A stretch of 64,000 nucleotides of DNA from IMG/VR virus record IMGVR_UViG_3300032324_000268. One strand, given 5' to 3'. The position numbers and the translations under genes were made by a program. The notes beneath the pieces are model-generated. The model searched no databases and was not told where the DNA came from. It worked only from the letters and a program-made list of their open reading frames with translations. Shown piece after piece: positions 3,370 through 51,549 of this stretch (position 1 is its first letter; every line of letters begins with the position of its first letter). Source of the stretch: an uncultured virus (IMG/VR IMGVR_UViG_3300032324_000268) (taxonomy: Duplodnaviria > Heunggongvirae > Uroviricota > Caudoviricetes).

Positions 3370-3396
3370 TTGACAGATTCTAAAAGGTATTAGGAT
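3370..3396 (+). promoter_or_regulatory. sigma70-like promoter for capsid operon
   Basis: TTGACA-N15-TAGGAT; same short spacing recurs at other promoters in the window. Confidence 0.55.
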
Positions 3397-5221: not shown

Positions 5222-5230
5222 GTAATTAAT

Positions 5231-5265
5231 GGAGGCTCCTAGGGTTCTATCCCCTAGGAGTCTTC
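5231..5265 (+). terminator. 14-bp stem-loop after capsid genes (terminator or processing/stability hairpin)
   Basis: GGAGGCTCCTAGGG-TTCTATC-CCCTAGGAGTCTTC; no U-tract. Confidence 0.5.
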
Positions 5266-20989: not shown

Positions 20990-23900
20990 ATGGCTCAGAC
21001 GATTCCAACGCCTGGTAGCGACGCAGTAATAGCTTCTCAGCCTCCCGTCAAGGGAGAATTTGATTGGTTGAACGACACTTTGGGGCTAACACCTCAACCC
21101 AAAAAGTTAGTTGGTTTGGAAGATATCGAAGGTTTAGGGGATCCGCTAACTGAAGCTGAGAAAGCTCTTGAAAACCCTTTCTTAAAACTACCTAAAGCCA
21201 ATCCTAAAGATTTCATTGATACTGTTAGAAAGGATTGGGAAATCGGTCAAGAGGGCGTCAATATTGATATGGCCACTGACGATTTCGCAACGCAGGTTTT
21301 AACCTCTGGTCAGCCGGGAGACTACAGCCAGTTACAAAACAAGCGTAAGGCTTTGGCGAAATCACAGTACTTTAACCAAGCCGATAACCTAGTTAGTCGA
21401 GCTGTCCACGGAACTGTGCAGATGTTGCCCCCGATGGCTCAAGGACAATTGTCTGGTATTGAGAAGGGTGTTGAACGTGGGATGCAGATGGGACTTATTG
21501 GGTCTTCTGGATTCGTTGCTGGGCCAGAGGTTGGTGCACCGATGGTTACTGCGTTTACGGGTGTCGGAGTTGCTGGTGGTAACCTAGAGGGCTCTTTCAA
21601 CTACTGGACAAAGCAAGGCCGAGGAGCGTCGTTTGCGGAGTTGGTAGACGCTGGTGTGAACCAAGTCACTGCCGCGAATATCGCCCAATTTGTTGGTCCG
21701 GCTTACGCAGCTATCGAATACGCCCAAGTTGGAAAACTTTTGGACATAGCTGGCGGGAAAGAGCTTAAGCGTGGTTTATTGCGTGGGGCAATGCAACAAC
21801 TTGCGAAGGTTGTCCCCGCTGGTGCTAAAGTTGCCGCAGAGAAAGTAGCTCAAGTTTCGGCTAGGCCACTTGTAAGGGGTGCTGTCGACGTTGCTGGTGA
21901 TATATTGGTACAAGCTGGTGAAGAAGCGGCTCAAGGTGCCGTGTCTCAAGCTGGTACAGAATACGGAAGATCCCAACAACAGCTTATCGCTCAAGGTGCT
22001 CGTGACGGAGCTATGGAAGTGCTCGCAAACCTAGACCTACCAGAAGCGTCTAAACAAGTGTTGTCCCGTGGTTTTGACGAGTTCGCAAGTAGCATTGGGC
22101 CGATGGCAGTTCTTACTGGTGGTGCAAAGGGGACGAACTTCCTTCGTAAAGCCTCATGGGATGGGTTTGTATCCCTAGCGAACGGGGACATCCAGAAAGC
22201 CGCAGATCAGCGTGATGCTGTGGCTAAAGCGGGAGCACCTCAGACTGCACAAGCTTTAGCTGAGACTCTCGAAACGGAGCCAAGTTCGGTTAAGCCGACA
22301 GCAGCGACTGTCACACCGACAGCTCCAGTGGTTGCCCCTATCGACGAGCCAGCCCTTGATGCGGAACTAGAGGCCGCTGGTCAAGCACCAGTGGAAGCCG
22401 AACAGCCCGAAGCTCCTAAGCCTACTGTGGGTCTGCCTGGTGATGAGTTGGGTGCAAGGATCTTCTCAAACATCCGTGCCCGTAAGCCTATTGCAAAGGT
22501 CGATCTAGACCAGGTTGGTGGATTCTCGTTGTCTTCCGATTGGAAGCTAAACGAAGAGACGGGTAACTTCGAATACCAAGGACCAGTTTATGAAAGAAAA
22601 GAAGCTCCGAAAGTTCCAGTCGCAAAAGCAGAAGCCGCCCCAATCGCACAGCCAGAAGTCAAAGCTCCAGAAGCCCAAGCCGTCGCTCCTATCGAAGCCC
22701 CTAAGCCCCAGCCTGCTCAAAAAGGTGCAGAAGCTGTCGCTCCTACATTAACTCCAGAAGTTGACCAGCCGACTCAGACTGCAAATGGCTGGCTTGGAGA
22801 GGTAGACAGAGCCAAGACACAAAAAGAAAAAAGCTCTTTGGTCAGAATGTTCAAAGGCAAGGTTAATTCATTGTCGGCGAACGATCAAAAGGCCGCGGCT
22901 ATTTTCAATGAAAAGCTTTTGCAAAGACAACAAGGAACTGCACCGAAGGTTGAGGCTCCTAAAGTTGAAGCACCCAAGGTCGAGGCTACCGCACTTCCGA
23001 GATGGGAAGAAGTCCAGAAGAACAAGGATCAGATCAAGTTCCTCAAGTCCGTTTTCAAGAAGGCAAACGCCAAGCTTACCAAAGAGCAACAAGTAACCCC
23101 CAAGGTTGGCTGGAAGCGGAAGGATTTCTACTCGGCTCTAGAACGGATGTATGGTCAGCTAACTCAGCTTGAGTTCAAGCAACCTGAGCAAGTTGCACCA
23201 CCAGCACCGAAGGTTGGCGAATCCCCGAAGCCAACTGCGATCAACGAGGCCGAGCAACGCAGAAAGCTCAAGCTTGCTAACCTGCTAAAGGTATTCGGAA
23301 ACAAGGATCTCGATGGTGACCAAACGCTATTCCGTGATATTGCTATGGCTCAAGCTCGGAAAGTTGCTTCACAGATTGCCACACAATTTCAAAACCTAAC
23401 TGACCCAGACGGAGAAATCTACAACGGGTTGATCTCGGCTATTGCCACCCGCCTTAAGAAGTCTTTCGATAACAAGACACCAGTGTTCTTCAACGAAGCT
23501 GGTGAGCCGATTGCTATCAATGACGAGTCAGTAAAGAAGTGGCTGATGAAAGCCGCGGATCGTGCTGGACGAGATACCGCCAGACGCCAATCCGCACAGA
23601 GAGAAATCAACATTGAGTTCGGTGGCAAGCCAGCCGAAGGAGTTGTCACGCAACCCGAAGCCGCCAAAGAAGAAGCCAAGCCCGAGGGCATGCAAGTCAA
23701 AGAGGTTGCCCCAGAGGTCAAGGAAGAGCCCCGTGGAATTCGAGCAATTCGAGAAGCCGCTCAAGCTATTCGGGAACAGAGCAGTCCAGAAGCAAAGCTT
23801 GTTTTGGATTGGGTCGTGTCTCAGTTGGTTGGGGAAGACTCGGCATTGGGCAAGATCAAGACATACAAGGAACTCGCAACCTATCTGTCCAAGGTTGCTA

Positions 23901-26900
23901 AACGGACGATCAGCGACAAACGAGTTGGGTTGACTGTAAACGATGTTGTTAAGAAGCTGGCTGACAATCTTTCGGAAATCGGAATTAAGGTAAACGTCGA
24001 AGCCCTTGAGATGGCACTTAGCCCCGAGGGTCAGAAAGCCAAGGAACGTCTTGCGGCTGAGGAAGCCAAGGCGAAAGCCTCTCGTGACGAGAGAGTGGCT
24101 AAGGCGAACCTATCCGATCGTGCTAGAAATCTTCGTTCTGGTTATGCAGTAAAAGAGAGGCTTGTGGATGCGGTTGCATCAGCAACCCCAGAAAACAGAG
24201 CGAGAATTCAAAACGAAGTCATATCGTTGGCAGAAGAAAATCTTCTAGCCGATGACGACATCAACAACAGACTCGATAACATCGAGAAAGGATTACCGAA
24301 TGAAAAGCCCGCAATTGGACAACCTATTCCCCGGCGTCAACGCCGAGGCGTTAAACAAGCTAAAGAAGGCGAAGTTCTCGGCGGAACTGGAGAAGGCGTC
24401 GAAGGTGCACGGGGGATTACCAGCCCTGTCGCAACTACTGAGGGACAACCCCAACCTGGGGCACGAGGAGCTGAACCAGTCGGTGCACGACCTAGCGGAG
24501 CTGGACAGCAAGTGGGCGGAAAACAGCAAACAGCTACGGGAAATGTTTCCGTTGACGTAAGGCTATCCGAGAATAACAGAAGCCCCGCAGTTAAGACTTT
24601 GGTTCAAACGGCTACCTCCAACGGAGTTCCAGTTACATTACAAGATTCTCCAGAAAGCGGATCGGCTGTTAGTGTAGACACCAATCAAGTCGAAGGACAA
24701 GAAGTCCCAACCATTCGAGTTAACCAGAACAAGCTTAAAGAAGTTCGTCGAACACTTGGGCCAAAGGCTTTTGCCGAATGGTCTTGGAGAGCTATCAACC
24801 AAGAGATTATTCACTTTAGGCATCTCAAGCTTCTTGATCGTCTAGCCAAAGAGGAAGGTACTGATTACAAGAGCTACCTCGAGAAGGAGGCCAAGAGGAT
24901 CGTACAGATCATCAAGAGACAGCGTGGTCTTCGCAAGAGGATCGAGGCTATCTACAACAACGGCGAGAAGATGGATGACTTCAACCTTGCGTTCGAGTTC
25001 ACCCGAATGCTTGTCGAAGAGAAGATGATGGGCGGAATTACAGAGTCCTCCTATATGGACATCGCCAAGGTTCTTAACTCTGTGGATGCCGAAGGCCGAG
25101 GATTTATCTTTAGGTTTATGGAGCTTGTTCGGGATTTGATGTACGGATTGACTGGGCGTACCGCAGCGGAGACCAAGTTCCTTCGTGCAACGGCTGACGC
25201 TATCATCAGCGAGCAACGCAAAGTTATGCGGGACTTATACAACCCGACTGAGAAGCTTCCCGTACAAGTAAATTTCTATACACCAAAGGAAAAGGTTATA
25301 GTTGGATCTGCCGCAGATCGCAAAGCGTCTGAAGAGGAGATCAAACAAGATAGTGGCTTGAACCGAGCCAGTATGCCATTCCTCCGTGAATACGCCAGAG
25401 AGCTTGGGATCAAGGAACCTATGGGCCAGCGGAAGATGGAGGTTCGCGACGAAAAGACTGGCAAAATTAGGGAGCAGAAAGTTTCATTCCCAGTTTGGAA
25501 GAAGCCCGATTATGTAAGGGCGATCAAAGAGAAGCTTAAGGAACTCGGTAAGAAGTCAAAAGAACCGACGGAACTTGGTGCTGCATTACCTACCGATCGG
25601 CCTTACTGGCTGAAAGATGACGGAGAGGTTCTTGATGTCGAAGAGAATGCTCTCGTCGATATGAACTCAATCGGTAGCCACTCCGAAGCCGCGGTTCAGT
25701 TCCTCCAGGAAAACGATCCAGAGAATCCTTTCTTGTTGGAGTGGTCTCTTCTAGACCCGTTGCAGAAGAAGGATCGTCAGCAGTTGCCAGTTCAAGAGAT
25801 GTTCAACAAGGGTTGGCTCCGTGTAATCGGTGACGGGTTTAACTTGTTCTTTGAAGGAACTCCGAACAAGCCGCAGTTAGACAAGCTGTTCGAGGCCGCA
25901 ATCGAGGATGAAGTTAAGTTGATTCACGACAAGACCGGATTGTCGGGTAGGCCAAAATCTAAGCTTCTATACGAGCCACCGCTCGAGGACGAGCTTAACG
26001 CCGCAATGCCTCGGCGTGGATTCTCTTCTAGCGAGCCTAGATTCAGTAAGTCTTGGAAGGCTCTTCCCGACTCTGTAATTGGTTTGACTGAAGTATATAA
26101 AATGAAGCGTGGCACTAACGATGTCCGCCTATACCGAGATGAGATGGGCGATACATTCGTAATTAAGCGTGGTCAGTCACGTGAACAATTCGAAAACGAG
26201 CTTGCGGCAGATAACGTCTACCGAATTCTCAATTATCCAGTTCCACCTTCCAGATTGATTACTGACGAGAATGGGGAAACAGCCAAAATCGCCAATTACG
26301 TGGAGGGCCCGATACTCGCAGATTTCCAAGAGAATATGGCGGAAGCAGACCCAGATGCTGTTAACGCGGTGTTTGAGGAACTTGGTGATGGGCTTCTGAT
26401 TGACGCCTTCTTGTTTAACTATGACGTCCTAGGGGAAGGGTTAGACAACATTGTTGTCGCTCACGAAGAAGTCACAGAAGAAGACGGGCTAGCATTCCCA
26501 GAGCCGTTGATCAAATACACGGCATACCGAATCGATAATGGTGGAACTCTGGACACTCGGGCAATGGGTCTCAAGAGAGATGAGCCATTTTTCTATGACT
26601 CATTCTCTAGGTTAGCCGAAAAGTACCCGCAGTTTAATCTCACAGCCACAGATCTTGTGGCACAGCTTTCCGATATCGTACTCAACAGCGATGCTATTCT
26701 AAACGCAATCCCAGCCAGACTACGGCCTATGATGGCTCAAAGAATCCAATGGATGGCAGATCAGCTAAGTGCGGTTGATACAATCCCTTCAGCAATCGGA
26801 TACTCTGACGAAGATGTTACAGCACATTTCGCCAAATTGGCCAAGGAGATGGATTCCATTAAGGTTGTTCGGAACGCTCAAGGAGAGCTGATAAACGAAA

Positions 26901-29900
26901 AGACTGGTGAGCCTTCTAGGATTTATTTAATCGACATAAACGGGAAAACCACTGGCTTTATCCCGAAGTCCGAATTTAGGTACAAGTTGGAGAGAACTAA
27001 AGCTTTCAAGATGTGGTTTGGGGATTGGGAAAATGCACCAGAAGCATTGGGGACAAGCAAGATTCTTGATGAGGCTGGTGAGCCAATGATGATGTATCAC
27101 GGGACAAACTGGACTACAAAAGAGTCGATGTATATGTTTAAGGACGACATCGATAAAGAAACACAAGGGTTGAATCTATACCGCAGACGTTTCTCCCAGG
27201 GCAACCTATTCCGAGGAACTTGGACATCTTCAAGCCAAAAGTTCTCCGAGGACTGGGCAAACGAAACCTCGGCTGGGGAGTACGCTCAACAAGTTGTCAT
27301 ACCAGTATACGTAAAGAGCACAAACCCATTTGACCCACGCAATCCCGAGCACGCTTCCAGATTGGTAAACTATCTCGAAAACAGGTACTCTGTTGATGCC
27401 GGAATTAACGCCTTCATACCAACTCGGGATATGCGTGTGGCTATGGAGTTTGGTTTTTATGATTGGTCTTACTTTGAAAACACCGCACCAGAGTTTCCAG
27501 CAATGGGTTCCGCTTTTGAGCAGAAGGATGAGGAGGCTCGTCGTAAGGAATTCTTTGCAAAGCACCCGTACCCAATCCTTGAGGCTATTATCAATCTTGG
27601 GTTTGACGGAATGTGGGTAAAAGAAAAGGGGCTTGGTTTCCCAGGATCTATTGAAAGTAGACCAAAAAATTTGGTACAAGAGCTCGAGATAATCCGAAGA
27701 AGTGACGACAAGAGTGTTGAAAAGCAAACTATCGAGAACCTTAAACAAGACATAACGGAATACAACAATAACTCAACCTGGAACCACTTGTCGTTCCGTT
27801 CGGATGGCATCAAGTCATCAGCTAACACGGGTAAGTTTAAAGCGGATAAACGAAAGACGTTTAAGCCAGCTCAAGAAGCACAGCGTTTCGTCAACTACGT
27901 AACTAGAAATCGTAAGACTCTTTGGAACGAATTTCAGAAGGGTGGTAAGACGTATGCTTCTTACGACTCAAGAGAGAATCTAGTAAGTTACGCATATTCC
28001 GATCCAAGGACTTTGGCAAGGGCTAACATCGAGAGGACTGAGATGAAGAACGGGGTTGTGTTCTTTAGTGCTAGGTCGGTTGAGGGTGTGCGTAGTCCAG
28101 ACCGCAAGCCTACCGATATTCTTGGAGCCGCGATGCCTCGCCAGTTCGGAGTTCGCATAAAGGACAAGATGCAGGCTGATGCTTACGACAAGCTTAAGAA
28201 CTTAACTTACGAGCCGATCCCAGATAGCATGGTTCAAGAAGAAGCCGAAGCGTATCTGGAGAAACACGGAATCCGTGGTGCTATGGATGCTACCATTTCC
28301 AAGTCGAGTCCTCTTGAACACGGGTCACGTGAGTTGCTGGCTCAAATGATTATCTTAAAGCTTAACGAGCAGTATAAGAAAACCAAAGATGCTAGAGTCT
28401 TGGAAGAGTTAATCGACTATACCGATACCTTTTTGGCGATCACTTCTGAGGCTGGACGTGCTCTTAGGCAGTTGTCTTTCTGGAGCAAGCTGTCACCCGA
28501 GGGGATGTTGATGCTCTACAAGAAGAAGCTTGATGAGTCAAATCGTGAGACCCGTGACCGATTCAATGAATTCTTTGCGAAGGTAAAGCGTGAGCTTTCG
28601 ACGTTGCCAGCTGGAGCACTAGATCAAGCCTTGAAGAGTATGGAAGGTTTGTTGGGTAAAGCCGATAAAGCCGCAGAAGAATCTCGTAAGAAGCTTGCTA
28701 CCAGCAACACTATGACTTTCTGGGAGAACTTCTCCAAACAGATTGGCGATAGCCTTGTTCAGAAATCTCAAGAGCAACTCAACATTGCAGAGGAAGAGCT
28801 TGCTCGCACTGCTGGTGGAGAGGCAACACCCGAAGGCGAGTTGGCTAGGAATAAGGTCAACAACGCAAAGACGATCAACCAAGCAGCCCAAGAGATGAGC
28901 CGTAATATCAAGCAGATGTTCCTAGCTCTTGCCAAAGAACAAGGTAAGAACATTCGAGATCCTCGGGTTCTCACGGACGAAGAGTTTGCCAATAAGACGG
29001 ACGAAGAGGTTGCAAAGATTCAACAAGCAGAACGGGATTCTAAGCAAGCACAGAAGTTTACGGATATGTTGGCGAGATGGCCGAAAGCCTTGCAAGCTTG
29101 GCAAACAGCGACGGACGCTATTCGTGCTCAGACATCCGTCAATCCTGAACTGGCTACTATGTTCCAGAGTTTTCTAGACCTCACTCTTGAGACCCCATTC
29201 ACGATGCCACAACTCAAACGATTCTTGTCTCTAAGAGGCGTTAAACTAGAAGACCTAATCCGTGAGCATTACCAAGAAGGTAAGCTGGCGAACAACGCTT
29301 ACTCTCTAGCCAAGGAGATGGTCGAGGAGGCTGGTCTTGGGGCATGGGAAGAGGAGACTGGTTCGGAGGTGACAACTCCTCTTGAGCCAGTTGCGGAAGG
29401 TGAAGAGCCAAAACCTTTAACAACGAAACTCCCTAGCCTTTCGGAACGACTAACACAAGCCCTTGCCCTTCAGATCGAGAAGTATGCTGAGACAGAGTCA
29501 GCAAAGAAACTTAATCGATTGATTGATTCTTATGCTGACAAACGTCTTGAACCATCTCTCAAACGCTTTATGAAGCGTATGGTTCAGTATCAAGCCTTGG
29601 GATTATTCAACAACGCCTATGCCTGGAACGAATTTCAGAAGCAAGAAGGGTTGGATAAAGTAAAGCCAGAGGTTGTAAATCAGATTCTTGATATTATGGG
29701 CAAGGCGGAAAAGCTTGTTGGGTTTAGGAAAGAAGAGGCATACGCCGATGCGCTTTCACTTATCTCTTACCACACGAACACAGGCTTTTGGAACTTCACC
29801 AAGTCTTGGTGGTACTTGAGCATATTGTCGGGCTTCACTACTCAAGTCGCTAACATTGCAGGCAATGCATATAACACAATGCTGTTGACTGTACCGACTA

Positions 29901-31765
29901 TCGGGAAACATTTGATTGCTGGAACTATTGACCCCGCCAGAAGCAAGGCAATCTTCAAGCAGATGACCAGAGCAATGTCTCTGTCGTTACAAGATTTAGG
30001 ATACTTGCTTACGACTGGTAGGGTCGGAACTCGCAAGTCAGACAACCCATTCTTCTCGCAAGCAAGCACAGATTACTTCGAAGTTATCGCAAAGAATACC
30101 CCGTATCGAGCCGCAAGGATTTCCTCTACGGCAGCCGCTATGGTGCGTAGAGTTATGTCTGGGGTTGATATGATGTTCTACAACTTCAACAAGGAAGTCT
30201 ATTTGTTTGATTCTGCTTACAATGACGCAAAGAAATCTGGGCTTACTGGGTCGGAGGCTATTGCTAAAGCACTTGACTTGACTTTCAGAAGCTCTGAAGC
30301 ATTGCAGTCTGCTCAAGCTTTGGCCGAAAAGGAAGGTTACGTAATTGAAGCGGAAGGCTTGGTGGAAAGGGCAAAGCAGAAGATAGAGCAATCGATTCGT
30401 ATCCAAGAGATCATCGACGCAAACGTTACGGGGTCTGAGGAGAGTTCAAGGGTGGCTATTGGGGCGCAAGTATATGGAGAAGAGCTTACGTATAACGAGG
30501 AGCCCAAGGGCTTCTTGGGTGCTCTGCATAGATCTATTTCTTCCCTAACGGTTAAGTATGGTTTGGTATCCGTGCCGATCCCTTTCACAAAGATCGTAGC
30601 AAACGTATGGAACCAAGGTCTCGACGCCACTGGTCTCGGGATCTTTAGGTCTGGGAAGTTAGCCCACGGAAAATTGGCTAAAGCGTTCCCCTTCCTTAAA
30701 GTGCTAGAGAGACTCGAGATGAAGGGTCTTAAGGGGTCAGCTGATGAGGTTCAAGCTCAGAAGGATATGATGTTCGTAAGAGGATTTAATGCTCTTGCCG
30801 CAGTAGGTATTATTACCTTGTTGGACAGAGTTCTTTGCGGTCAGTATGAAACTTATGGGTTTGAGCTTTGCGTAAACGGTCCTGGCCCTAAAGAACCAGC
30901 ACAAAAAGAACTGCTTAAGAATCGTTTGGGTTGGAAACCGAATTCGCTTTTCATCCGCACACCAGGTATAGATGGCATCTATCTTAGCTATATGTTGTCA
31001 CCCCTAGCCATTCCGTTGGCTGGTGTCGGACTATTAAAAGATAACGAGATTTATAACTACTACGCCAAGAAGTCACCAAAGGACGCTTCCCTAGCCTTGG
31101 CTCATAGACTTTTGACTGTACCGATGGAGATGAACTTTTTGTCTGGTCTTGGGGACTTGTTTGAAATCTTGAGCCCCAACAACCCAGAGACCGCTCTTGC
31201 TAAAGCCAAGTCATTCCTTTCAAGAATGGGTTCAGCAATGGTTGTCCCGAACTTCTTTAGGGATGTCGACCAGCTTATTGTGTCTAGCCTACCGGGGGTG
31301 CTTAACCCAAGGACGGCTAGAGAAGACATTATACAAGCAGCATTTATTTCCAATACTCCAATCATTCGGCAAATGTACGGAAGTGCTGAGCTTGATATCT
31401 TAGGTCAACCGATTGAGATGACTTCACGAGTTGCGAGCATTGCCGGGAAAGATGCTTTGGTGGATGTGCTTATCCAAAAGAATGCTCTCCCGACTGCTCC
31501 CAAAAAAGACAAATTGCTTGGTCTTGTCCCAATGGACGATACTCAATACGCACAGTATCGTGAATACAGAGCAAAACAACTTGGGGAAGATCTTAACACG
31601 CCAGAAATGATTGAAACCCTATCTAGAATGGAACCTGGAATAGCTCAGATGTATGTTCAGAAATATACCCAGAAAGCTAGCCAATTGGCCAAAGCAAAGA
31701 TTCTGAGGGGAAGCCCAGAGATACTAAAAGAGGCAAGAGAAACAAAAGCTAAACAGATTAAATAG
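20990..31765 (+). CDS. giant polyvalent internal virion protein (sigma-like, zincin-like, HeH, HipA/PI3K-like kinase, ART-PolyVal-like, C-terminal ejection domain)
   Basis: 3591 aa; kinase DAFLFNYD..DN..RIDNGG; ART FKMWFGDW..SKILDEAGEPMMMYHGT; QEIIH; sigma region 2/4 patterns. Confidence 0.8.
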   Translation: MAQTIPTPGSDAVIASQPPVKGEFDWLNDTLGLTPQPKKLVGLEDIEGLGDPLTEAEKALENPFLKLPKANPKDFIDTVRKDWEIGQEGVNIDMATDDFATQVLTSGQPGDYSQLQNKRKALAKSQYFNQADNLVSRAVHGTVQMLPPMAQGQLSGIEKGVERGMQMGLIGSSGFVAGPEVGAPMVTAFTGVGVAGGNLEGSFNYWTKQGRGASFAELVDAGVNQVTAANIAQFVGPAYAAIEYAQVGKLLDIAGGKELKRGLLRGAMQQLAKVVPAGAKVAAEKVAQVSARPLVRGAVDVAGDILVQAGEEAAQGAVSQAGTEYGRSQQQLIAQGARDGAMEVLANLDLPEASKQVLSRGFDEFASSIGPMAVLTGGAKGTNFLRKASWDGFVSLANGDIQKAADQRDAVAKAGAPQTAQALAETLETEPSSVKPTAATVTPTAPVVAPIDEPALDAELEAAGQAPVEAEQPEAPKPTVGLPGDELGARIFSNIRARKPIAKVDLDQVGGFSLSSDWKLNEETGNFEYQGPVYERKEAPKVPVAKAEAAPIAQPEVKAPEAQAVAPIEAPKPQPAQKGAEAVAPTLTPEVDQPTQTANGWLGEVDRAKTQKEKSSLVRMFKGKVNSLSANDQKAAAIFNEKLLQRQQGTAPKVEAPKVEAPKVEATALPRWEEVQKNKDQIKFLKSVFKKANAKLTKEQQVTPKVGWKRKDFYSALERMYGQLTQLEFKQPEQVAPPAPKVGESPKPTAINEAEQRRKLKLANLLKVFGNKDLDGDQTLFRDIAMAQARKVASQIATQFQNLTDPDGEIYNGLISAIATRLKKSFDNKTPVFFNEAGEPIAINDESVKKWLMKAADRAGRDTARRQSAQREINIEFGGKPAEGVVTQPEAAKEEAKPEGMQVKEVAPEVKEEPRGIRAIREAAQAIREQSSPEAKLVLDWVVSQLVGEDSALGKIKTYKELATYLSKVAKRTISDKRVGLTVNDVVKKLADNLSEIGIKVNVEALEMALSPEGQKAKERLAAEEAKAKASRDERVAKANLSDRARNLRSGYAVKERLVDAVASATPENRARIQNEVISLAEENLLADDDINNRLDNIEKGLPNEKPAIGQPIPRRQRRGVKQAKEGEVLGGTGEGVEGARGITSPVATTEGQPQPGARGAEPVGARPSGAGQQVGGKQQTATGNVSVDVRLSENNRSPAVKTLVQTATSNGVPVTLQDSPESGSAVSVDTNQVEGQEVPTIRVNQNKLKEVRRTLGPKAFAEWSWRAINQEIIHFRHLKLLDRLAKEEGTDYKSYLEKEAKRIVQIIKRQRGLRKRIEAIYNNGEKMDDFNLAFEFTRMLVEEKMMGGITESSYMDIAKVLNSVDAEGRGFIFRFMELVRDLMYGLTGRTAAETKFLRATADAIISEQRKVMRDLYNPTEKLPVQVNFYTPKEKVIVGSAADRKASEEEIKQDSGLNRASMPFLREYARELGIKEPMGQRKMEVRDEKTGKIREQKVSFPVWKKPDYVRAIKEKLKELGKKSKEPTELGAALPTDRPYWLKDDGEVLDVEENALVDMNSIGSHSEAAVQFLQENDPENPFLLEWSLLDPLQKKDRQQLPVQEMFNKGWLRVIGDGFNLFFEGTPNKPQLDKLFEAAIEDEVKLIHDKTGLSGRPKSKLLYEPPLEDELNAAMPRRGFSSSEPRFSKSWKALPDSVIGLTEVYKMKRGTNDVRLYRDEMGDTFVIKRGQSREQFENELAADNVYRILNYPVPPSRLITDENGETAKIANYVEGPILADFQENMAEADPDAVNAVFEELGDGLLIDAFLFNYDVLGEGLDNIVVAHEEVTEEDGLAFPEPLIKYTAYRIDNGGTLDTRAMGLKRDEPFFYDSFSRLAEKYPQFNLTATDLVAQLSDIVLNSDAILNAIPARLRPMMAQRIQWMADQLSAVDTIPSAIGYSDEDVTAHFAKLAKEMDSIKVVRNAQGELINEKTGEPSRIYLIDINGKTTGFIPKSEFRYKLERTKAFKMWFGDWENAPEALGTSKILDEAGEPMMMYHGTNWTTKESMYMFKDDIDKETQGLNLYRRRFSQGNLFRGTWTSSSQKFSEDWANETSAGEYAQQVVIPVYVKSTNPFDPRNPEHASRLVNYLENRYSVDAGINAFIPTRDMRVAMEFGFYDWSYFENTAPEFPAMGSAFEQKDEEARRKEFFAKHPYPILEAIINLGFDGMWVKEKGLGFPGSIESRPKNLVQELEIIRRSDDKSVEKQTIENLKQDITEYNNNSTWNHLSFRSDGIKSSANTGKFKADKRKTFKPAQEAQRFVNYVTRNRKTLWNEFQKGGKTYASYDSRENLVSYAYSDPRTLARANIERTEMKNGVVFFSARSVEGVRSPDRKPTDILGAAMPRQFGVRIKDKMQADAYDKLKNLTYEPIPDSMVQEEAEAYLEKHGIRGAMDATISKSSPLEHGSRELLAQMIILKLNEQYKKTKDARVLEELIDYTDTFLAITSEAGRALRQLSFWSKLSPEGMLMLYKKKLDESNRETRDRFNEFFAKVKRELSTLPAGALDQALKSMEGLLGKADKAAEESRKKLATSNTMTFWENFSKQIGDSLVQKSQEQLNIAEEELARTAGGEATPEGELARNKVNNAKTINQAAQEMSRNIKQMFLALAKEQGKNIRDPRVLTDEEFANKTDEEVAKIQQAERDSKQAQKFTDMLARWPKALQAWQTATDAIRAQTSVNPELATMFQSFLDLTLETPFTMPQLKRFLSLRGVKLEDLIREHYQEGKLANNAYSLAKEMVEEAGLGAWEEETGSEVTTPLEPVAEGEEPKPLTTKLPSLSERLTQALALQIEKYAETESAKKLNRLIDSYADKRLEPSLKRFMKRMVQYQALGLFNNAYAWNEFQKQEGLDKVKPEVVNQILDIMGKAEKLVGFRKEEAYADALSLISYHTNTGFWNFTKSWWYLSILSGFTTQVANIAGNAYNTMLLTVPTIGKHLIAGTIDPARSKAIFKQMTRAMSLSLQDLGYLLTTGRVGTRKSDNPFFSQASTDYFEVIAKNTPYRAARISSTAAAMVRRVMSGVDMMFYNFNKEVYLFDSAYNDAKKSGLTGSEAIAKALDLTFRSSEALQSAQALAEKEGYVIEAEGLVERAKQKIEQSIRIQEIIDANVTGSEESSRVAIGAQVYGEELTYNEEPKGFLGALHRSISSLTVKYGLVSVPIPFTKIVANVWNQGLDATGLGIFRSGKLAHGKLAKAFPFLKVLERLEMKGLKGSADEVQAQKDMMFVRGFNALAAVGIITLLDRVLCGQYETYGFELCVNGPGPKEPAQKELLKNRLGWKPNSLFIRTPGIDGIYLSYMLSPLAIPLAGVGLLKDNEIYNYYAKKSPKDASLALAHRLLTVPMEMNFLSGLGDLFEILSPNNPETALAKAKSFLSRMGSAMVVPNFFRDVDQLIVSSLPGVLNPRTAREDIIQAAFISNTPIIRQMYGSAELDILGQPIEMTSRVASIAGKDALVDVLIQKNALPTAPKKDKLLGLVPMDDTQYAQYREYRAKQLGEDLNTPEMIETLSRMEPGIAQMYVQKYTQKASQLAKAKILRGSPEILKEARETKAKQIK

Positions 31766-36691: not shown

Positions 36692-36864
36692 TTGATTGTC
36701 TTGCCTTTGCTAGGTAGTTGTAAGATGTGACTGAGTAACCAGCTGGTCAGCATATTCTCAGCACGATTGACGAACTGGTCGCTAACACGTGTGAACTTGT
36801 GATGCCGTTTGCCAGCAATCTCAAGTGCGGTTCGTTTGAACTTAGCTTTGTTTAGTATGCTCAT
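36688..36864 (-). CDS. 58-aa histone-fold-like protein
   Basis: MSILNKAKFKRTAL...TRVSDQF...PSKGKTIK; ATGA overlaps at both ends; below ORF-track cut-off. Confidence 0.6.
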   Translation of the reverse strand: MSILNKAKFKRTALEIAGKRHHKFTRVSDQFVNRAENMLTSWLLSHILQLPSKGKTIK

Positions 36865-37304
36865 AGTTTAATCCTTTTAGTTAGATGCCTTGGGTGTGGT
36901 TCAGCTTTGAATCCCCTACCCTTGGCGTGTTTAAGTGTAGCTTTCGAGACGCCCCATTGAGAGGCAATCTCACCGAGAGGCACACCATTTTCGTATGCCT
37001 CTTTCCAGCGATCCCACCGATTCTTCACGCTGTTGAAGTCTCGGTAATACCCAACGCCACCATCTTTACGGATCTTTAGATACTCCTTAGTTGCCATCTT
37101 CCGCATATCATCAAGTGTGCGTTTGGCTGATATCTCTTTGCTTAGCTTGTCCACTAGCTTGATATGTTCGCTGACATCCTTGGCCATCTTGAAAACAAAG
37201 TTCTCAAGGTATTGCAATGATCGGTGAAGGTTGTCGATGCGATCATCCAAGCGTGGGACTTCTGATGCTTCGATTAACTCTTTGACTTTACTCGTAACAT
37301 TCAC
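36861..37304 (-). CDS. coiled-coil protein with C-terminal HTH
   Basis: GVPLGEIASQWGVSKATL. Confidence 0.6.
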   Translation of the reverse strand: MNVTSKVKELIEASEVPRLDDRIDNLHRSLQYLENFVFKMAKDVSEHIKLVDKLSKEISAKRTLDDMRKMATKEYLKIRKDGGVGYYRDFNSVKNRWDRWKEAYENGVPLGEIASQWGVSKATLKHAKGRGFKAEPHPRHLTKRIKL

Positions 37305-37614
37305 TGGCTTCCCTTTCTGCCTTCTGTTGGGTAGCACTGAACAATGCTTCCTTGGCTGCTTCTAACAGATACTTCGAGGGTTCTTTAACTTCCTCTTGAG
37401 TATCACGATGAGTAAGACTTAAGTCTGAGAACTCGGCTTGAGCATACTCACTGAAGAAGGCAATCTCTGTCTGGCACTCACGAGCACCTTGGTACTCGTA
37501 GTCGCCTATACCTACATCTTCGGATTCAATGTGGTGAACCACTGTGCCACCAACCACATACCACATATTACTGAACTGAAACTTTACGTCGCATTCTTCA
37601 ACTTCGATTTCCAT
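37288..37614 (-). CDS. acidic hypothetical protein
   Basis: AAAGGAGG RBS. Confidence 0.6.
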   Translation of the reverse strand: MEIEVEECDVKFQFSNMWYVVGGTVVHHIESEDVGIGDYEYQGARECQTEIAFFSEYAQAEFSDLSLTHRDTQEEVKEPSKYLLEAAKEALFSATQQKAEREASECYE

Positions 37615-42076: not shown

Positions 42077-43429
42077 TTAGTGAGCAATCGCCCCAATAAG
42101 TTGAGGACCGCATTTGGCTTGTCCTTGTGCAACTTGTTTGAGGTAGGTGATCGCATCTTCAATACGTTTGTACATAACAGCCTTGGCCTTGATGGCTAAC
42201 GCCTTGGCCTCGGCAGTAAGATGTGCGTAGCAACCATCACGCTGACCATCTGTGACTTGGCCGTCGCAGACCCAGAGCACTGGCTCGTTCTGGAAACGCT
42301 TGGCCTTGATCGCCCAGCGTAGAGCTGGTCCGTCAACACCATTACCGCCACCACGACGCTTGGGTAACTTGTCAATCATCTTGCCGTCCTTGGCTAGTAT
42401 CCAGAAGTTGGGTACGTCCTTGGTACCCGGTGCGTGGGAGTAGAGTGCGACAGTAGCCCCAGGTGCTGCGTTAAGTATCTTGAGTACGTCCTCACTCTCG
42501 ACGCCCATAGAACCAGAGCCGTCGATCAATACGACACCGCCAGAGTTACGCTTCGTCCGATCAAAGATCCGACGATACGGGTCAGTCAGCATACGATGGA
42601 TACGCCGAGGGTTGCGACCCGTAGGAGAGGCCAGCTTGATCTTGCCAAGGTTGCCGTTGTGCATCTTGACTAGAGGAGCTGAGCCTTCGCACAAGTCAGC
42701 GAACTTGGCGGTCATATCAGAATTGGCGTGGTCGGATGGCCTACGATTACGGAACGATGGAACTCTGCCAGTCTCCTTGGCAAGCTCGATGCACTTGTCT
42801 AGTAGTATCGCAATTTGTTCACTAATAGCAAAGCCACGGGTCATCATCTTGGAACGTGAACCTTCGATACTCTTATCCGACGTAAGCGAGGACGAGTAGG
42901 TATCGAGAACCTCCTCGATAGACTCGGCAAGATTGCAGACGGACTCGAACATACCGAAGTCGTCGATTTCCGTACACGCTTTCTTGATGCCACCAACCCA
43001 ATCCTTCCAACCAGCAGTACCAATGACGGCGGATGTGCCATATACTAGGCGTGTCATATCCTTGGCTTTCGCACAAGTGTATGCGTTGTTGCCGTCGTTG
43101 ATGTCTGCCAGATGGGTCTCTGGGTCAAAGCCAACCTTCTTCATAGCACGATTGACACGTGCCTCCTCCGCTGCAAGGAGGGAATCGAATGTAGCTCTTC
43201 CTCGTCTGAGCCACGGACGCAAGTCAGATGGACTCAACCGAACGTGCATCAATTCGTGTGCTCGTATGTGACGAGCTGTTTCGTCGGCGTCCAAGGGGAC
43301 GTGCATCGTACTAGTAGCAATGCTTGTCTTGGGAGCACCACGAATGCCAGCACATCGAACGATGTCCCAACACTCATTGACTCCACGTACACCACCACTC
43401 TGTCGTACAAACTCTGGATATACTTTCAT
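42077..43429 (-). CDS. metallopeptidase-like plus vWA protein (CobT-like partner)
   Basis: HELMH motif; MIDAS DGSGSM; CDG. Confidence 0.75.
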   Translation of the reverse strand: MKVYPEFVRQSGGVRGVNECWDIVRCAGIRGAPKTSIATSTMHVPLDADETARHIRAHELMHVRLSPSDLRPWLRRGRATFDSLLAAEEARVNRAMKKVGFDPETHLADINDGNNAYTCAKAKDMTRLVYGTSAVIGTAGWKDWVGGIKKACTEIDDFGMFESVCNLAESIEEVLDTYSSSLTSDKSIEGSRSKMMTRGFAISEQIAILLDKCIELAKETGRVPSFRNRRPSDHANSDMTAKFADLCEGSAPLVKMHNGNLGKIKLASPTGRNPRRIHRMLTDPYRRIFDRTKRNSGGVVLIDGSGSMGVESEDVLKILNAAPGATVALYSHAPGTKDVPNFWILAKDGKMIDKLPKRRGGGNGVDGPALRWAIKAKRFQNEPVLWVCDGQVTDGQRDGCYAHLTAEAKALAIKAKAVMYKRIEDAITYLKQVAQGQAKCGPQLIGAIAH

Positions 43430-43462
43430 CGATCCTCCTTTCAGCGAAGGTTAAGGGTTTAG

Positions 43463-44191
43463 TTAGCTCTTGTTGATCGTGTCGATCTTCGTAGCGTCCA
43501 AGAACTCCTTGGCCGACCCACCGAAGATGAGGTAAGCCGCACGCTCTGCACCGATAGCCTTGCGGAGATTGTCGTAGGCATAGAAGGAACGCAGATCAAT
43601 ACGGCGTTCTCCTAAGTCAGCGGCACGCTCGGCATAGGCACGCAAGTCGGGAGACAAGCGTTGCAAGGCAGTGAAGTGGGGCTTGTTGACACGAACACGA
43701 ATCGGGAAGCGGGAACGAATCGCCTCTGGCAATTCCTCGAGCTGTTCCAGATTCGTAGTCATCACTACGCTGAAGCCTTCAGCGGGAGTCTCGGTCTTAC
43801 CAGTCTGGGGATTCTCCCAACGGCAAGACTCGGGGCTGTCAGTCATAGCAAGCAAGGTGGCGAACACGTCACCACCAGCCTTGTCGATCTCGTCGACAAT
43901 CAGCCGACCACCAGTACGCCAAGCCTTAACAGCTTGACCCTCGTGCCAGCTAAACGTGCCCTTCTCGTTGGGCATCCAAGCACCAGTCACATCGGCATTG
44001 GTCATATCTGGAGTACAGATAAGACGGAATGTCGGGCGGTCTTGCGTAGCCATCGTGAGACCAGCATACGTCTTGCCAGTTCCAGGAGGTCCGTAAAGGA
44101 CTAGGCGATTGACGCCAGCCGATAATGCGGTTTCGATATCCGTCCAACAATCGCTGGACTTCGTAGGTTGTTTCGATTTGGTAGTAGCCAT
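43463..44191 (-). CDS. MoxR/CbbQ/CobS-like AAA+ ATPase
   Basis: GPPGTGKT, LIVDEID, TTN, RSRF. Confidence 0.88.
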   Translation of the reverse strand: MATTKSKQPTKSSDCWTDIETALSAGVNRLVLYGPPGTGKTYAGLTMATQDRPTFRLICTPDMTNADVTGAWMPNEKGTFSWHEGQAVKAWRTGGRLIVDEIDKAGGDVFATLLAMTDSPESCRWENPQTGKTETPAEGFSVVMTTNLEQLEELPEAIRSRFPIRVRVNKPHFTALQRLSPDLRAYAERAADLGERRIDLRSFYAYDNLRKAIGAERAAYLIFGGSAKEFLDATKIDTINKS

Positions 44192-45117: not shown

Positions 45118-45720
45118 ATGCCGAAGGACTTGGGCATCGACTGGAAAGTCATTGAGTTGGAATACCTTAAGGGTATGCGTGTAACTCACATTGCATCTAC
45201 GTACAAAATCAAGCAGTCTACTCTTGAAGCTCGTATTCGTAGGATGGGTTGGAAAGACAAACGCCTTGCAATGGAGAGTGCAATAGCCCACAAAGAAGCA
45301 CAGAAAACTATACAAACGCTCGCCACAAAGGCGACCTCGTATCTTGAAAGGGTAGTAAAGGAAGTTGATAAAGGAATGAACGTGCTCGAAACCCAACATC
45401 CAGCCACTGCGAAGGAACTCAACGAGCATTTCGATGCACTTGGTAAGATCGATAAGGTGGCGAGACCAGCCTTGGGGCTTTCGTTGGAAGGAAATGGCGG
45501 AAAAGCGAGCGTAGTGAATGTCGCTGTGCTTCAACAATTTGCGGACATTGAACCTCAAAAAAGCATTGTAGTTGATAATCAACAACTTACTACTGAAGTT
45601 GATGCAATGCCTATTGTGCGACTTATTAAAGAGCCTCATTCCAGTCCCCTTTCCGTTGAACCAAACTCACAACCTTCGCAGAACGAATTGGCTTCAGTGC
45701 CCGATCAGCTTTGCGAGTAG
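45118..45720 (+). CDS. terS: terminase small subunit (HTH)
   Basis: DWKVIELEY..G....IA..Y.I...TL..RIRR.GW N-terminal HTH followed by coiled coil. Confidence 0.65.
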   Translation: MPKDLGIDWKVIELEYLKGMRVTHIASTYKIKQSTLEARIRRMGWKDKRLAMESAIAHKEAQKTIQTLATKATSYLERVVKEVDKGMNVLETQHPATAKELNEHFDALGKIDKVARPALGLSLEGNGGKASVVNVAVLQQFADIEPQKSIVVDNQQLTTEVDAMPIVRLIKEPHSSPLSVEPNSQPSQNELASVPDQLCE

Positions 45721-45998: not shown

Positions 45999-46037
45999 AA
46001 AAAAAAGAAACACCGAGAGGGATTGAACCTCTCGGTG
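45999..46037 (-). terminator. intrinsic terminator
   Basis: CACCGAGAGG-TTCAATC-CCTCTCGGTG followed by TTTCTTTTTTTT on minus strand. Confidence 0.8.
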
Positions 46038-46054
46038 CTTCGGTGAATCTCTCT

Positions 46055-46354: not shown

Positions 46355-46639
46355 ATTTAATTACTCTTTCTTTGTTAGTTGTTTTAGTTTTGTTCAGAGG
46401 AACTTCTGTTCCCCTTGCCAACCGAACAACGAAACCGACCGAAAAAAAGCCGACCGACCCCCCGCCAAAAACCCGAAGGGTTTTTGAACCCCAAAGTATA
46501 AGATGATATAAGATAGATAAGATACCCTGGGGGAGTAGTACCCCTCTTTATTATTACAAGGAATCACGGGGGGTGATGTAAAAAATTATTTTTATATTTT
46601 GGCCTCTGGACAAATTGCCCGAATCGATACAATGCTCTT

Positions 46640-46885
46640 ATGCCTCTTGGACGTAACTACGCTATGGAGTACCGCAGGTACCACGGTTCGCGCAAAGCGA
46701 AACAAGACAGAGCGGCTAGAAACGCGGCCAGGCGGAGATTGATAACGAAAGGCCGGGTTCGGAAAGGCGACGGAAAAGACGTCGACCACCGAGACGGCAA
46801 TCCACGCAACAATCGTGCGGGGAACTTGAGGGTTATGTCAAAGGGTGCCAATCGTGGCCGGGACAATAACTCTTGGAGATACTGA
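46640..46885 (+). CDS. small HNH protein
   Basis: KDVDHRDGNPRNN...NL....N. Confidence 0.8.
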   Translation: MPLGRNYAMEYRRYHGSRKAKQDRAARNAARRRLITKGRVRKGDGKDVDHRDGNPRNNRAGNLRVMSKGANRGRDNNSWRY

Positions 46886-49404: not shown

Positions 49405-51549
49405 TCAACCGTTCTTGGGCAATTCTATCTCCCATTGCGTGATCCCATTCAATAGCAGAAGACGTTTGACACGGGTGTTATCCAGAACGGAAATCGACGC
49501 AAGCAAACGACCGAGCATTCTGGAACTAGGCACGAACATCTTCACGCTCTGGCTGAGCTTTGCATCTTGTTGGAATGCTAGGAGTAGCTCAATCGCAGAT
49601 CCCTTCCAGTGAGTCTCTGCAGGATTGTCTTTCTTGAACTGAAACAAGAACACATCCAAGAATTCCAAGAAGCTATGCACGCTCGAGGATGCTCTGGATT
49701 CGGCCAAGAGGAGAGGGTGGTGGTAGGACTTCACCACGTACCGCTCGCCGCCTAGGATTTCTTTGGGGATCTCCCAGTCACGAAGCCAAGCAGCAAAGTG
49801 TGGGAGTTCCTCCGACAACATCGATGGGATGTCGTTGCGGGAGATTTCCTCAAACATTTTGTGTGCCTTGAATTTAAACAGGCTGATCTTATCTAGGATT
49901 GAGCCGTCCGTGTGTGGAACGGCTTGTACTGATTCTGGATCGTCGTTGAGCGTCTGGATAATACGTCCACGCCAGTCCAGCGTCACTTGATCCATAAACT
50001 TCCGATGATATGCGTGACGAGTGTTGGCCACTCCTTGCTTGATCATTCGGCTGTAGTGGCGGTGAGCCTCGGATGAATCGGCTGAGCTTGCGTCGTCAAC
50101 GTTCCACACTGCGTACTCGAACAACTCGGCATTGAACGAAGATCCTTGTACCAGATAGTCAGAAGCGTTTGCTCCTCCACCCATCAGACGGGCGACGATC
50201 TCGGTGCCAAAGAATGTCTTACCCAGACCGACTGATCCAGCGATGAAGACCGCTTGCCCTGGTGAGAGTTTCCCACGCAGAGCCGATCCGTAGAAATGCT
50301 TGAGCCAGCCCATGAGGAATGGCAAAGATTCATGCGGTTCCATCACTGTGTCGAAGAAGCGAGCCAGCCACGGGAATCCTTCTCCCCATTTGCCGTGATG
50401 CCCATCTGCTGGTTGCATGACTCGGGTGCGTGAGATGTTGAGCATCTTACGTCCGTCTTGGATGACGATGTCTCGCTGGTCATATAGAGCTGGCATCGAG
50501 CCTTGAACTACCTTTAGCTCCCGAACCCTCCGCATAGCCTCGTCAGCGTCGGACAAAGCTCCACGTTCGTCTGGTGCCGAGGATAGTCCGAACATCCCAA
50601 CAATATCGTGGCGGGTATCATCCTTACCCGACGAACGCCAACATCCGTCCAGATCCTTTTTCCAGTACAGCTTGCCGTCGTACCAGAATGTCTGCATTGG
50701 TCCGCCGTAACGATCTTCCTCAAACTCCTTCACCCACGCCGCACCAAAGATATCAGCCCACGTTAAGAACCCCTTTGTGGAACGTGTGGAGTAGCTGATC
50801 ATTCCAGTCTTGGTGACTTGTGCTCCAGTACGTTCGACTCCGTCCTCTAGCCAAAACAGAGGTCCACGCATTCCCTCCTCAAAAGGTCCAGTCCATCTAC
50901 CTGGGAATGTCTCTTGTACCTTTTGGTATATACGCTCAAGCGGGATGGATACCTCTCCCTCACCCCGATACTTCTTCGAACGCTCTACAGCTTCGGACAG
51001 GATGGAGTGAACCGCTTCCGTCCTTACTGGGGCATCTGCGAATCGAACCGCACCAGGCCACCAAGCGTAGTACTGGTCTGGTTTGAAGATGGCGTCATCC
51101 ATCCTCGGGAATAGATTCTTTGCTTTGGTCTCCTTGACCAGCAGACCTAGAAATTCTTTTAGAACGCCGGGAAGAACGTAAACAGGCTCCTCGAACATCC
51201 ACACCACACGAGCACCAGAGCTGAATGTCTTGTGAGCAAACATCGGCTTGAATCCCGGTTTCGACCCACGGGTCAATCCTTCAAGCAACTCCTCGTCTGT
51301 AAGGGGAGTATCGTAATCTGCAATCAGTCCGTGCATCTTGTACGGATCGTTCGACTTGGATACTCGAGCGTGAGGATTGATACCCTCGAACGCAGATACA
51401 AACACCCCGTCAGTTGTGTCTGCCTGCGCCCACTTGCGGAAATCTTCTTTTTCTTTAAACGATGGGATGACCAGAGTCTTCTCCCAAGGCTTTGCTGGCT
51501 CTGCTGTTCTAGACGTTAAATTCGGTATCCTAAATAATGTTGTCTTCAT
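49405..51549 (-). CDS. primase-helicase (prim-pol-like N-terminus, DUF5906/SF3-like NTPase)
   Basis: IADYD and HKTFSSGARV in N-terminus; Walker A GSVGLGKT, Walker B WNVDD. Confidence 0.75.
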   Translation of the reverse strand: MKTTLFRIPNLTSRTAEPAKPWEKTLVIPSFKEKEDFRKWAQADTTDGVFVSAFEGINPHARVSKSNDPYKMHGLIADYDTPLTDEELLEGLTRGSKPGFKPMFAHKTFSSGARVVWMFEEPVYVLPGVLKEFLGLLVKETKAKNLFPRMDDAIFKPDQYYAWWPGAVRFADAPVRTEAVHSILSEAVERSKKYRGEGEVSIPLERIYQKVQETFPGRWTGPFEEGMRGPLFWLEDGVERTGAQVTKTGMISYSTRSTKGFLTWADIFGAAWVKEFEEDRYGGPMQTFWYDGKLYWKKDLDGCWRSSGKDDTRHDIVGMFGLSSAPDERGALSDADEAMRRVRELKVVQGSMPALYDQRDIVIQDGRKMLNISRTRVMQPADGHHGKWGEGFPWLARFFDTVMEPHESLPFLMGWLKHFYGSALRGKLSPGQAVFIAGSVGLGKTFFGTEIVARLMGGGANASDYLVQGSSFNAELFEYAVWNVDDASSADSSEAHRHYSRMIKQGVANTRHAYHRKFMDQVTLDWRGRIIQTLNDDPESVQAVPHTDGSILDKISLFKFKAHKMFEEISRNDIPSMLSEELPHFAAWLRDWEIPKEILGGERYVVKSYHHPLLLAESRASSSVHSFLEFLDVFLFQFKKDNPAETHWKGSAIELLLAFQQDAKLSQSVKMFVPSSRMLGRLLASISVLDNTRVKRLLLLNGITQWEIELPKNG

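Follow-up and report, generated by a model that had tools for sequence, protein, structure and literature searches.

A predicted sigma factor-like module within a giant phage protein and its possible role in early transcription

Introduction

Can a phage carry a promoter-specificity subunit into the host cell together with its DNA? The known phage sigma factors, such as T4 gp55 and SPO1 gp28, are made after infection, and what virions are known to carry for transcription is either a polymerase or a modifying enzyme, the virion RNA polymerases (vRNAPs) of crAss-like phages and phiKZ being delivered with the virion for early transcription. The question is raised by IMG/VR record IMGVR_UViG_3300032324_000268, an uncultured virus of the class Caudoviricetes, in which the large genes of the structural block end with an open reading frame (ORF; 20990..31765, plus strand) for a giant polyvalent protein of 3591 aa. 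According to structure prediction, residues 773-998 of this protein have a probable sigma-type fold, flanked by about 770 aa on the N-terminal side and 2590 aa on the C-terminal side. Bases 1-64000 of the complete 67,100-base record were analysed and are hereafter called the window.

The N4 vRNAP and the ADP-ribosyltransferase (ART) Alt of T4 are described in the text of PMC5512222 as delivered by the virion and acting on early transcription. These systems, like those of crAss-like phages and phiKZ, deliver a polymerase or a modifying enzyme, whereas a promoter-specificity subunit is proposed here. Phage-encoded sigma factors, on the other hand, are stand-alone proteins, synthesised anew in the infected cell as middle or late factors, while the module described below lies inside a giant protein; group 2 sigma factors of jumbo phages, as presented in PMC7824862, recruit the host core RNA polymerase (RNAP). 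No precedent for a virion-borne or ejected sigma factor was found in the literature covered, which leaves subscription journals and supplements outside, and the word "sigma" has 0 occurrences in the main text of Iyer 2017 (PMC5512222).

Sigma-like segment and its predicted structure

In the AlphaFold2 model (mean predicted local distance difference test score, pLDDT, of 78.5 with a 7-row alignment as input) aa 773-998 fold into two helical domains, with a disordered linker of about 35-40 residues between them. The helices span residues 21-42, 51-72 and 90-122, and then 160-173, 178-192, 204-215 and 221-241 (model numbering), with pLDDT<50 for the interdomain residues 122-156. The first domain (aa 773-872; 23306..23605, plus strand, as are all features of this gene) is a sigma2-like three-helix domain delimited with the model, VIA-align and hhalign, and comprises a region 1.2-like GDQ..F motif followed by regions 2.1, 2.2 and 2.3-2.4. 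An acidic patch (aa 805-809; 23402..23416) occupies, in the hhalign register, the position of the core-binding DAED motif of extracytoplasmic function (ECF) sigma factors, and a beta-hairpin (23480..23512) is inserted between helices 2.2 and 2.3, at the place of the ECF specificity loop L3 as judged by the model and the alignment. The acidic linker (aa 873-912; 23606..23725) has a conserved TQ.E core and is followed by a sigma4-like four-helix domain with a helix-turn-helix (HTH) (aa 913-998; 23726..23983), indicated by VIA-align, hhalign and conservation.

A sequence-only reading of this stretch had named several peptides as resembling sigma regions 2.3-2.4 and 4. All of them are in frame in the ORF 20990-31765, namely SVKKW...ARRQ at aa 847-867 (23528-23590), AIREQ...LDW at aa 926-941, TYKELATYL at aa 958-966, SDKRV at aa 975-979 and VVKKL...IGI at aa 986-999. 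Their order and rough spacing held, although 58 aa, not the "about 55" given, separate the first peptide from the second; likewise, the first domain was located correctly but begins about 9 residues earlier, at the GDQ..F motif, which aligns with the ECF "Gd..Af". The tryptophan of KKWL, which had stood out in that reading, turned out not to be conserved (W/F/Y/I in the alignment).

In PMC8103513, ECF sigma factors are defined by sigma2 and sigma4 domains with a linker of <50 residues, and the acidic DAED motif is presented as their key contact to the beta' clamp, its charge being restored by phosphorylation in some ECFs. The segment has the predicted sigma2 fold, the predicted sigma4 fold with HTH, no sigma3 and a linker of <50 residues. 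It thus resembles ECF sigma factors in the predicted sigma2-linker-sigma4 arrangement, in co-linear motifs and in acidic residues at the DAED position, and differs from them in being embedded in a 3591-aa protein, in falling below the thresholds of all family hidden Markov models (HMMs), including Pfam Sigma70_r2 and Sigma70_r4_2 and the NCBIfam sigma models, in the degenerate DAED-xx-QE motif, and in carrying a beta-hairpin at loop L3 as well as HTH insertions; an anti-sigma partner was not seen.

Fold and language-model comparisons

The model was compared with 48,161 chains using VIA-align. The N-domain matched sigma2 structures, namely 5uxx_C (Z 7.3, root-mean-square deviation (rmsd) 3.1, 85 aligned), 1h3l_B (Z 7.1), 8b3z (Z 6.3) and 3ugo (Z 6.1, rmsd 2.0), and the C-domain matched sigma4 structures, namely 2h27_D (Z 7.0, rmsd 3.0, 69 aligned), 5wuq_A (Z 7.0) and 6dxo_A (Z 6.7, rmsd 1.8). 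SigL of M. tuberculosis (6dv9_F) aligns over 154 residues spanning both domains, which are oriented differently (rmsd 23.6). The ECF structures compared were E. coli RpoE (2h27, 2mao), B. quintana RpoE (5uxx), S. coelicolor SigR (1h3l, 5fgm), B. subtilis SigW (5wuq) and M. tuberculosis SigL (6dv9).

In the Foldseek search of the PDB, ranks 1-16 are all sigma70-family chains or models (best E 0.086). The nearest matches in BFVD are phage-encoded sigma factors, the top one being a phage sigma subunit (E 8.7e-3, prob 0.99). In the ESM Atlas, the window segment first retrieves unnamed clusters (0.95-0.96), and its nearest named cluster is Sigma70_r2/r4 (0.94); a relative with 29% identity retrieves a Sigma70_r2 cluster (48% of its members) at 0.94, alongside HTH clusters, and its first cluster has the same size as that of the window segment.

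Profile comparison with ECF sigma factors

An ECF profile was built from 26 sequences out of 35 sigma loci from E. coli and four plasmid-collection records; the 9 loci left out comprised 8 judged to be group 1-3 or similar and 1 that was too short. Global HHalign of this profile with the segment alignment A3 gave 182 co-linear columns from GDQ..F to the last helix (E 0.003). In a sliding-window test with 240-aa windows of an 11-row alignment of the giant protein (56 forward and 56 reversed windows), the windows on the sigma-like segment scored 18.4 and 18.8 in global mode, compared with 8.9 for the best non-overlapping forward window and 9.9 for the best reversed one. The whole segment (18.0), as well as the sigma4 part alone (14.2), scored above 131/131 shuffles in 7-column blocks (n=131). 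The cross pairs gave nothing, with E 0.78 for the N-domain against sigma4 and E 0.61 for the C-domain against sigma2. Local-mode profile scores were dropped as evidence, the segment scoring 23.1 and a reversed window 23.0.

Descent of the segment from the sigma70 family is, in our estimation, very probable. The AlphaFold2 model, VIA-align and the global profile scores place the proposed resemblance above chance, though it is remote, and the order sigma2, short linker, sigma4 was recovered by structure prediction, two fold searches, the language-model search and the controlled profile comparison. Both folds are thus predicted, with remote matches. The module would work like an ECF sigma factor at best and is not placed in that family, as the family models do not recognise it and it is not a stand-alone subunit.

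Distribution and conservation

Homologues of the segment were found only within giant proteins or their fragments. There are 10 at 46-100% identity, and a phmmer search over 1.84 billion representatives returned 5 matches only, all of them relatives of the giant protein, down to 33% identity; loci in relatives reach down to 29%. In all full-length relatives the module is internal to proteins of about 3500-4300 aa. No stand-alone homologue of 102-464 aa was found among 7995 candidates and no mid-sized one of 465-2000 aa among 7985, which is weak evidence given the word index used, and no stand-alone Sigma70_r2 was detected in 5/5 relatives.

Every relative covering the region, down to the 29% level, retains both domains and the sub-50-residue linker. 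The sigma4 domain contains 16 of the 25 invariant columns of the alignment and keeps a scaffold matching the ECF "Lp...R.vl.L....Glsy.EiA..l", in which the R is replaced by an invariant K; its recognition helix starts with an invariant S.K.V. Identity in sigma4 is 51-58% to four relatives and 35% to the most distant one. The acidic patch has 2-3 D/E at the positions of aa 805-809 in all 10 rows covering it (the 11th row is a fragment without this region), with S or T beside the acidic residues in some rows. Most rows have the beta-hairpin in the loop at the L3 position; in the distant L015/L017 lineage this loop is shorter.

The carrier protein and its phage

The gene of the giant protein is preceded by three ORFs of 114, 307 and 374 aa, and its gene order together with the precedent of polyvalent proteins makes it likely that the 3591-aa product is an internal, ejected virion protein. 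Its match to the PHROG "internal virion protein" is weak (E 0.012); hydrophobic stretches begin near aa 3260-3266 and 3330. Polyvalent proteins of phages are proposed in the text of Iyer 2017 (PMC5512222) to be packaged, possibly self-processed by a zincin, and possibly to jump-start transcription, and the 2811-aa polyvalent protein gp47 of phi24B is reported in the bioRxiv text (10.64898/2026.04.10.717836) to have been detected in virions by proteomics and proposed to be an ejection protein. The protein described here is like the phage-type polyvalent proteins in being giant and multidomain, in belonging to a portal-terminase phage (terL and terS-like genes are present), and in having ART-PolyVal, a zincin-like motif and swappable cassettes, and is unlike them in having no LPD38 or MPTase Pfam match.

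ART-PolyVal (PF18760; aa 2027-2120, 27068..27349; E 2.6e-7 in one scan and 1.4e-8 in another) is the sole Pfam match of the protein over the cut-off and was found at E<=3.1e-5 in 10/10 relatives scanned, 6 of which reached or passed the cut-off. The other disparate effector domains were read by eye. The zincin-like metallopeptidase remnant (24557..25249), with QEIIH at 24800-24814, has HETVH in 2/11 aligned homologues and EExxH or QExxH in 9/11, and no Pfam or PHROG match. The kinase-like domain (26087..26779) has the motifs IKRG...ENE, D..GE..DN and IDNG, weak tblastn matches to hypothetical phage proteins and no match in Pfam, PHROG or NCBIfam.

Three copies of an L[GN]AA[ML]P motif mark module boundaries, at aa 1529 (25574..25591), aa 1669 (25994..26011) and aa 2378 (28121..28138). 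At the first of them a cassette of about 300-620 aa with no Pfam family, bounded by two motif copies, is present or absent in relatives (P0004, P0005, P0007, P0009 and P0010), which suggests that the motifs are joints of cleavage or recombination. None of them flanks the sigma-like module, so cleavage would leave it in an N-terminal piece of about 1530 aa.

The phage possesses a terL gene (phrog_2, E 1.7e-9), and the window also holds tail-fibre genes, a family A DNA polymerase and a helicase. Among the 29 large ORFs scanned there was no clear tape-measure, tube or sheath match, which suggests a short-tailed phage; a match to an SU10-type adaptor was below the cut-off. No close cultured relative was found in the phage collection searched, no prophage or host-linked copy in GTDB contigs queried with the sigma alignment or terL, and no tRNA in 18/18 relative stretches.

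Early region and promoter-like sites

The small, likely early genes of the minus strand are preceded by a non-coding block (46355..46639, minus strand) conserved in 4/4 phages compared. It is a candidate early promoter region and/or packaging end. The block is single-copy, has a non-consensus sequence, adjoins an HNH-like gene (46640-46885, plus strand) and is near a terS-like gene (45118-45720, plus strand; phrog_1206, E 7.9e-6) located on the opposite strand within the small-gene block. The terS-like gene, with the HNH-like gene nearby, is far from terL (61060), and this arrangement is conserved in relatives.

The same block contains a single-copy palindrome (46467-46485) consisting of A5-6, a short G/C stem, a 3-nt GAA/TTC loop and T5-6. 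The stem differs among four phages (the window, G002, G003 and G005) yet stays paired, and GGTCGG repeats around a T-tract come after it. The palindrome could be a terminator, a DNA hairpin or a packaging signal.

No TTGAC-N14-18-TAnnnT site was found in the early sense before the minus-strand small-gene block in 4/4 phages, and the opposite strand of the early region has a conserved site of the TTGAC type. The absence in the early sense fits a phage-supplied specificity factor. No repeated phage-specific promoter motif was found, and scans of the early region for repeats and the sigma70 consensus gave nothing above shuffles (18 found vs 22.3 expected). Sites of the form TTGAC(N)-N15/16-TAnnnT, conserved in relatives and preceding late-type genes, are located at 3370, 15970, 31913, 59665, 62781 and ~46606 on the plus strand and at 49408 on the minus strand. 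In five phages TTGAC-N-TAnnnT sites are mostly non-coding and largely before late-type genes; the spacers of the 30 non-coding ones, which are orthologous and not independent, are 15 (16/30), 16 (8), 14 (4) and 18 (2), with 17 at 0, while whole-record counts are 20, 13 and 1 for spacers of 15, 16 and 17, each of the remaining spacer lengths between 10 and 22 occurring 2-16 times. The spacer of E. coli sigma70 promoters is 17. The sites may be housekeeping promoters of the host or late promoters of the phage.

The catalytic domain of the beta' subunit of multisubunit RNAP (PF00623) is absent in 4/4 phages, the control being detected in 14/14 cases; PF00940 had no match in 4/4 phages either, but its control gave no match. 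A scan for polymerase motifs found one unconserved DxDGD in 1/4 giant proteins; very divergent polymerases could escape all of these searches.

Proposed role and alternatives

We tentatively propose, at a little under an even chance, that aa 773-998 are a diverged ECF-derived module delivered with the DNA, which engages the host RNAP for early transcription. The proposal is made because the N- and C-domains separately match sigma2 and sigma4 in order and the cross pairs fail, because the linker has <50 residues as in ECFs and the acidic patch is kept in 10/10 rows, because no multisubunit RNAP catalytic domain (4/4 phages) and no stand-alone Sigma70_r2 (5/5 relatives) are detected, and because late-type genes carry TTGAC-N15/16-TAnnnT sites and the early block has none in its sense (4/4 phages). 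The giant protein, judging from its gene position and the polyvalent-protein precedent, would be packaged in the virion and ejected with the DNA, and might be partly released by cleavage at the L[GN]AA[ML]P motifs. Docking would then take place at two sites, the acidic patch of region 2.2 binding the beta' clamp helices and sigma4 the beta flap, and the host core RNAP with the putative factor would read a non-host promoter in 46355-46639 and start the early block. T4 Alt modifies host proteins, and the ART and kinase-like domains that share a polypeptide with the module could plausibly assist in the same way. The fuller version, in which an injected sigma factor works within the polyprotein, possibly switched on by the kinase-like domain, and directs the host core RNAP to an early promoter specific to the phage at the leading genome end while all phage genes are still silent, is more doubtful. 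Next to host-sigma promoters and virion RNA polymerases, it would make a third way of setting off early transcription.

If the proposal is true, a 67-kb phage would need neither host sigma factors nor a packaged polymerase to start its programme, and promoter-specificity subunits would join the known cargo of polyvalent proteins. Should a sigma factor with an enlarged specificity loop indeed work while embedded in a polyprotein, this would further inform on the minimality and plasticity of the sigma70 fold. The small fragment (230 aa) and the candidate DNA region (285 bp) are accessible in vitro without culturing the phage.

A number of results weigh against this proposal, and some of them favour another explanation, namely a sigma-derived module that no longer works with RNAP, whose sigma4 HTH binds DNA, for example at the leading genome end during ejection or for protection or anchoring, and whose sigma2 half is a decayed scaffold. 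Exact DAED occurs in 0/10 rows, and the Q-E following DAED in the ECF consensus is replaced by Y/F-x. Four relatives are 38-44% identical in sigma2 and the most distant one 19%, so that the domain is less conserved than sigma4, and also less than the kinase-like and C-terminal parts of the protein; core binding usually imposes the opposite pattern. The sigma2 part alone (11.7; E 0.026 in global mode) was exceeded by at least 5 of the 131 block shuffles. No processing motif would free the module, and the first His of the neighbouring zincin is lost in 9/11 rows. The degenerate region 2.2 and the weak conservation of sigma2 thus leave room for a decayed or purely DNA-binding role. The retention of both domains and the short linker in all covering relatives and the acidic patch kept at the core-binding position speak against such decay, which we regard as rather unlikely.

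The persistence of the acidic patch next to an enlarged loop and a variable (W/F/Y/I) DNA-melting aromatic in region 2.3 may instead point to a sigma mimic or competitor, which would occupy the sigma sites on the host core RNAP without directing initiation and would displace host sigma factors or block stress-response holoenzymes. The module also travels with ART and kinase-like effector domains, as would suit such an inhibitor. The invariant, basic-faced HTH (S.K.V) suggests DNA reading, however, and blanket inhibition would block the genes of a phage that has no detectable RNAP of its own, which makes a mimic decidedly unlikely.

Similarly low is our estimate for the possibility that the segment is not sigma-derived at all, being a generic three-helix bundle and a generic HTH that look sigma-like through a common arrangement. 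This convergence draws on the weaknesses of the searches, which count against the proposal as well. No VIA-align match reaches Z 8, values around 7 being common by chance for helical models; the top ranks are shared with two helical DUF1048 proteins (Z 7.7 and 7.3), and non-sigma HTH proteins come close behind (terS of G20C, Z 5.9; KorA, Z 5.4-5.6). No Foldseek match in the PDB or BFVD has E<=0.001, and the features shared in the Atlas (144-146/256) are under the 170 typical of same-family matches. Pfam gave no sigma family at E<=1 for 7/7 alignment members, no sigma family in Pfam or NCBIfam was matched by the window segment, and the PHROG and PDB-sequence searches returned no sigma match for it. 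The HHalign probability is about 4-6%, the segment alignment is shallow (effective number of sequences, Neff, 2.3), and a reversed window equals the segment in local profile score. Against convergence, each half picks its own sigma domain in the proper order, the segment's global score exceeds all block shuffles and is roughly double the best found in non-overlapping forward windows or in the 56 reversed ones, the motifs match co-linearly from GDQ..F through the final helix, and the language-model search agrees for two lineages.

As for the promoter side of the proposal, the block 46355-46639 may simply be the packaging end, given its terS-like and HNH-like neighbours, and a TTGAC-type site is also missing in the sense of the replication block at 5/5 relatives' loci, so its absence is not specific to the early genes. 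A late sigma factor, acting in the producing cell on the TTGAC-N15/16-TAnnnT sites before structural genes, would explain why the non-coding spacers are mostly 15/16 and never 17, but is very improbable, as the TTGACA-reading residues of sigma70 (R584/E585/R588) are missing from the recognition helix (S-D/E/A-K-R/K/A-V), the gene of the giant protein is itself downstream of TTGAC-type sites, and the spacing of these orthologous sites may be that of the host's housekeeping sigma factor.

Other features of the genome

Two hairpins, at 46007-46041 (minus strand) and ~5230-5262 (plus strand), have loops resembling the tRNA T-loop (GGTTCAATCC / GGTTCTATCC) and are kept with stem changes in G002, G003, G004 and G005. 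The hairpin at 46007-46041 is strongly terminator-like, yet gene 45976 begins only about 30 nt beyond it. A small coiled-coil and HTH protein encoded at 36861-37337 (minus strand), conserved in 4/4 relatives and with a weak Sigma70_r4_2 score (E 0.01), is a candidate late activator, its single-sequence fold being poor (pLDDT 63.5). The gene at 42077-44191 (minus strand) codes for an AAA+ ATPase that is 83-98% identical in five relatives, which is unusually conserved for that block, and adjoins a gene for a 450-aa protein of phrog_33218 with a HELMH motif.

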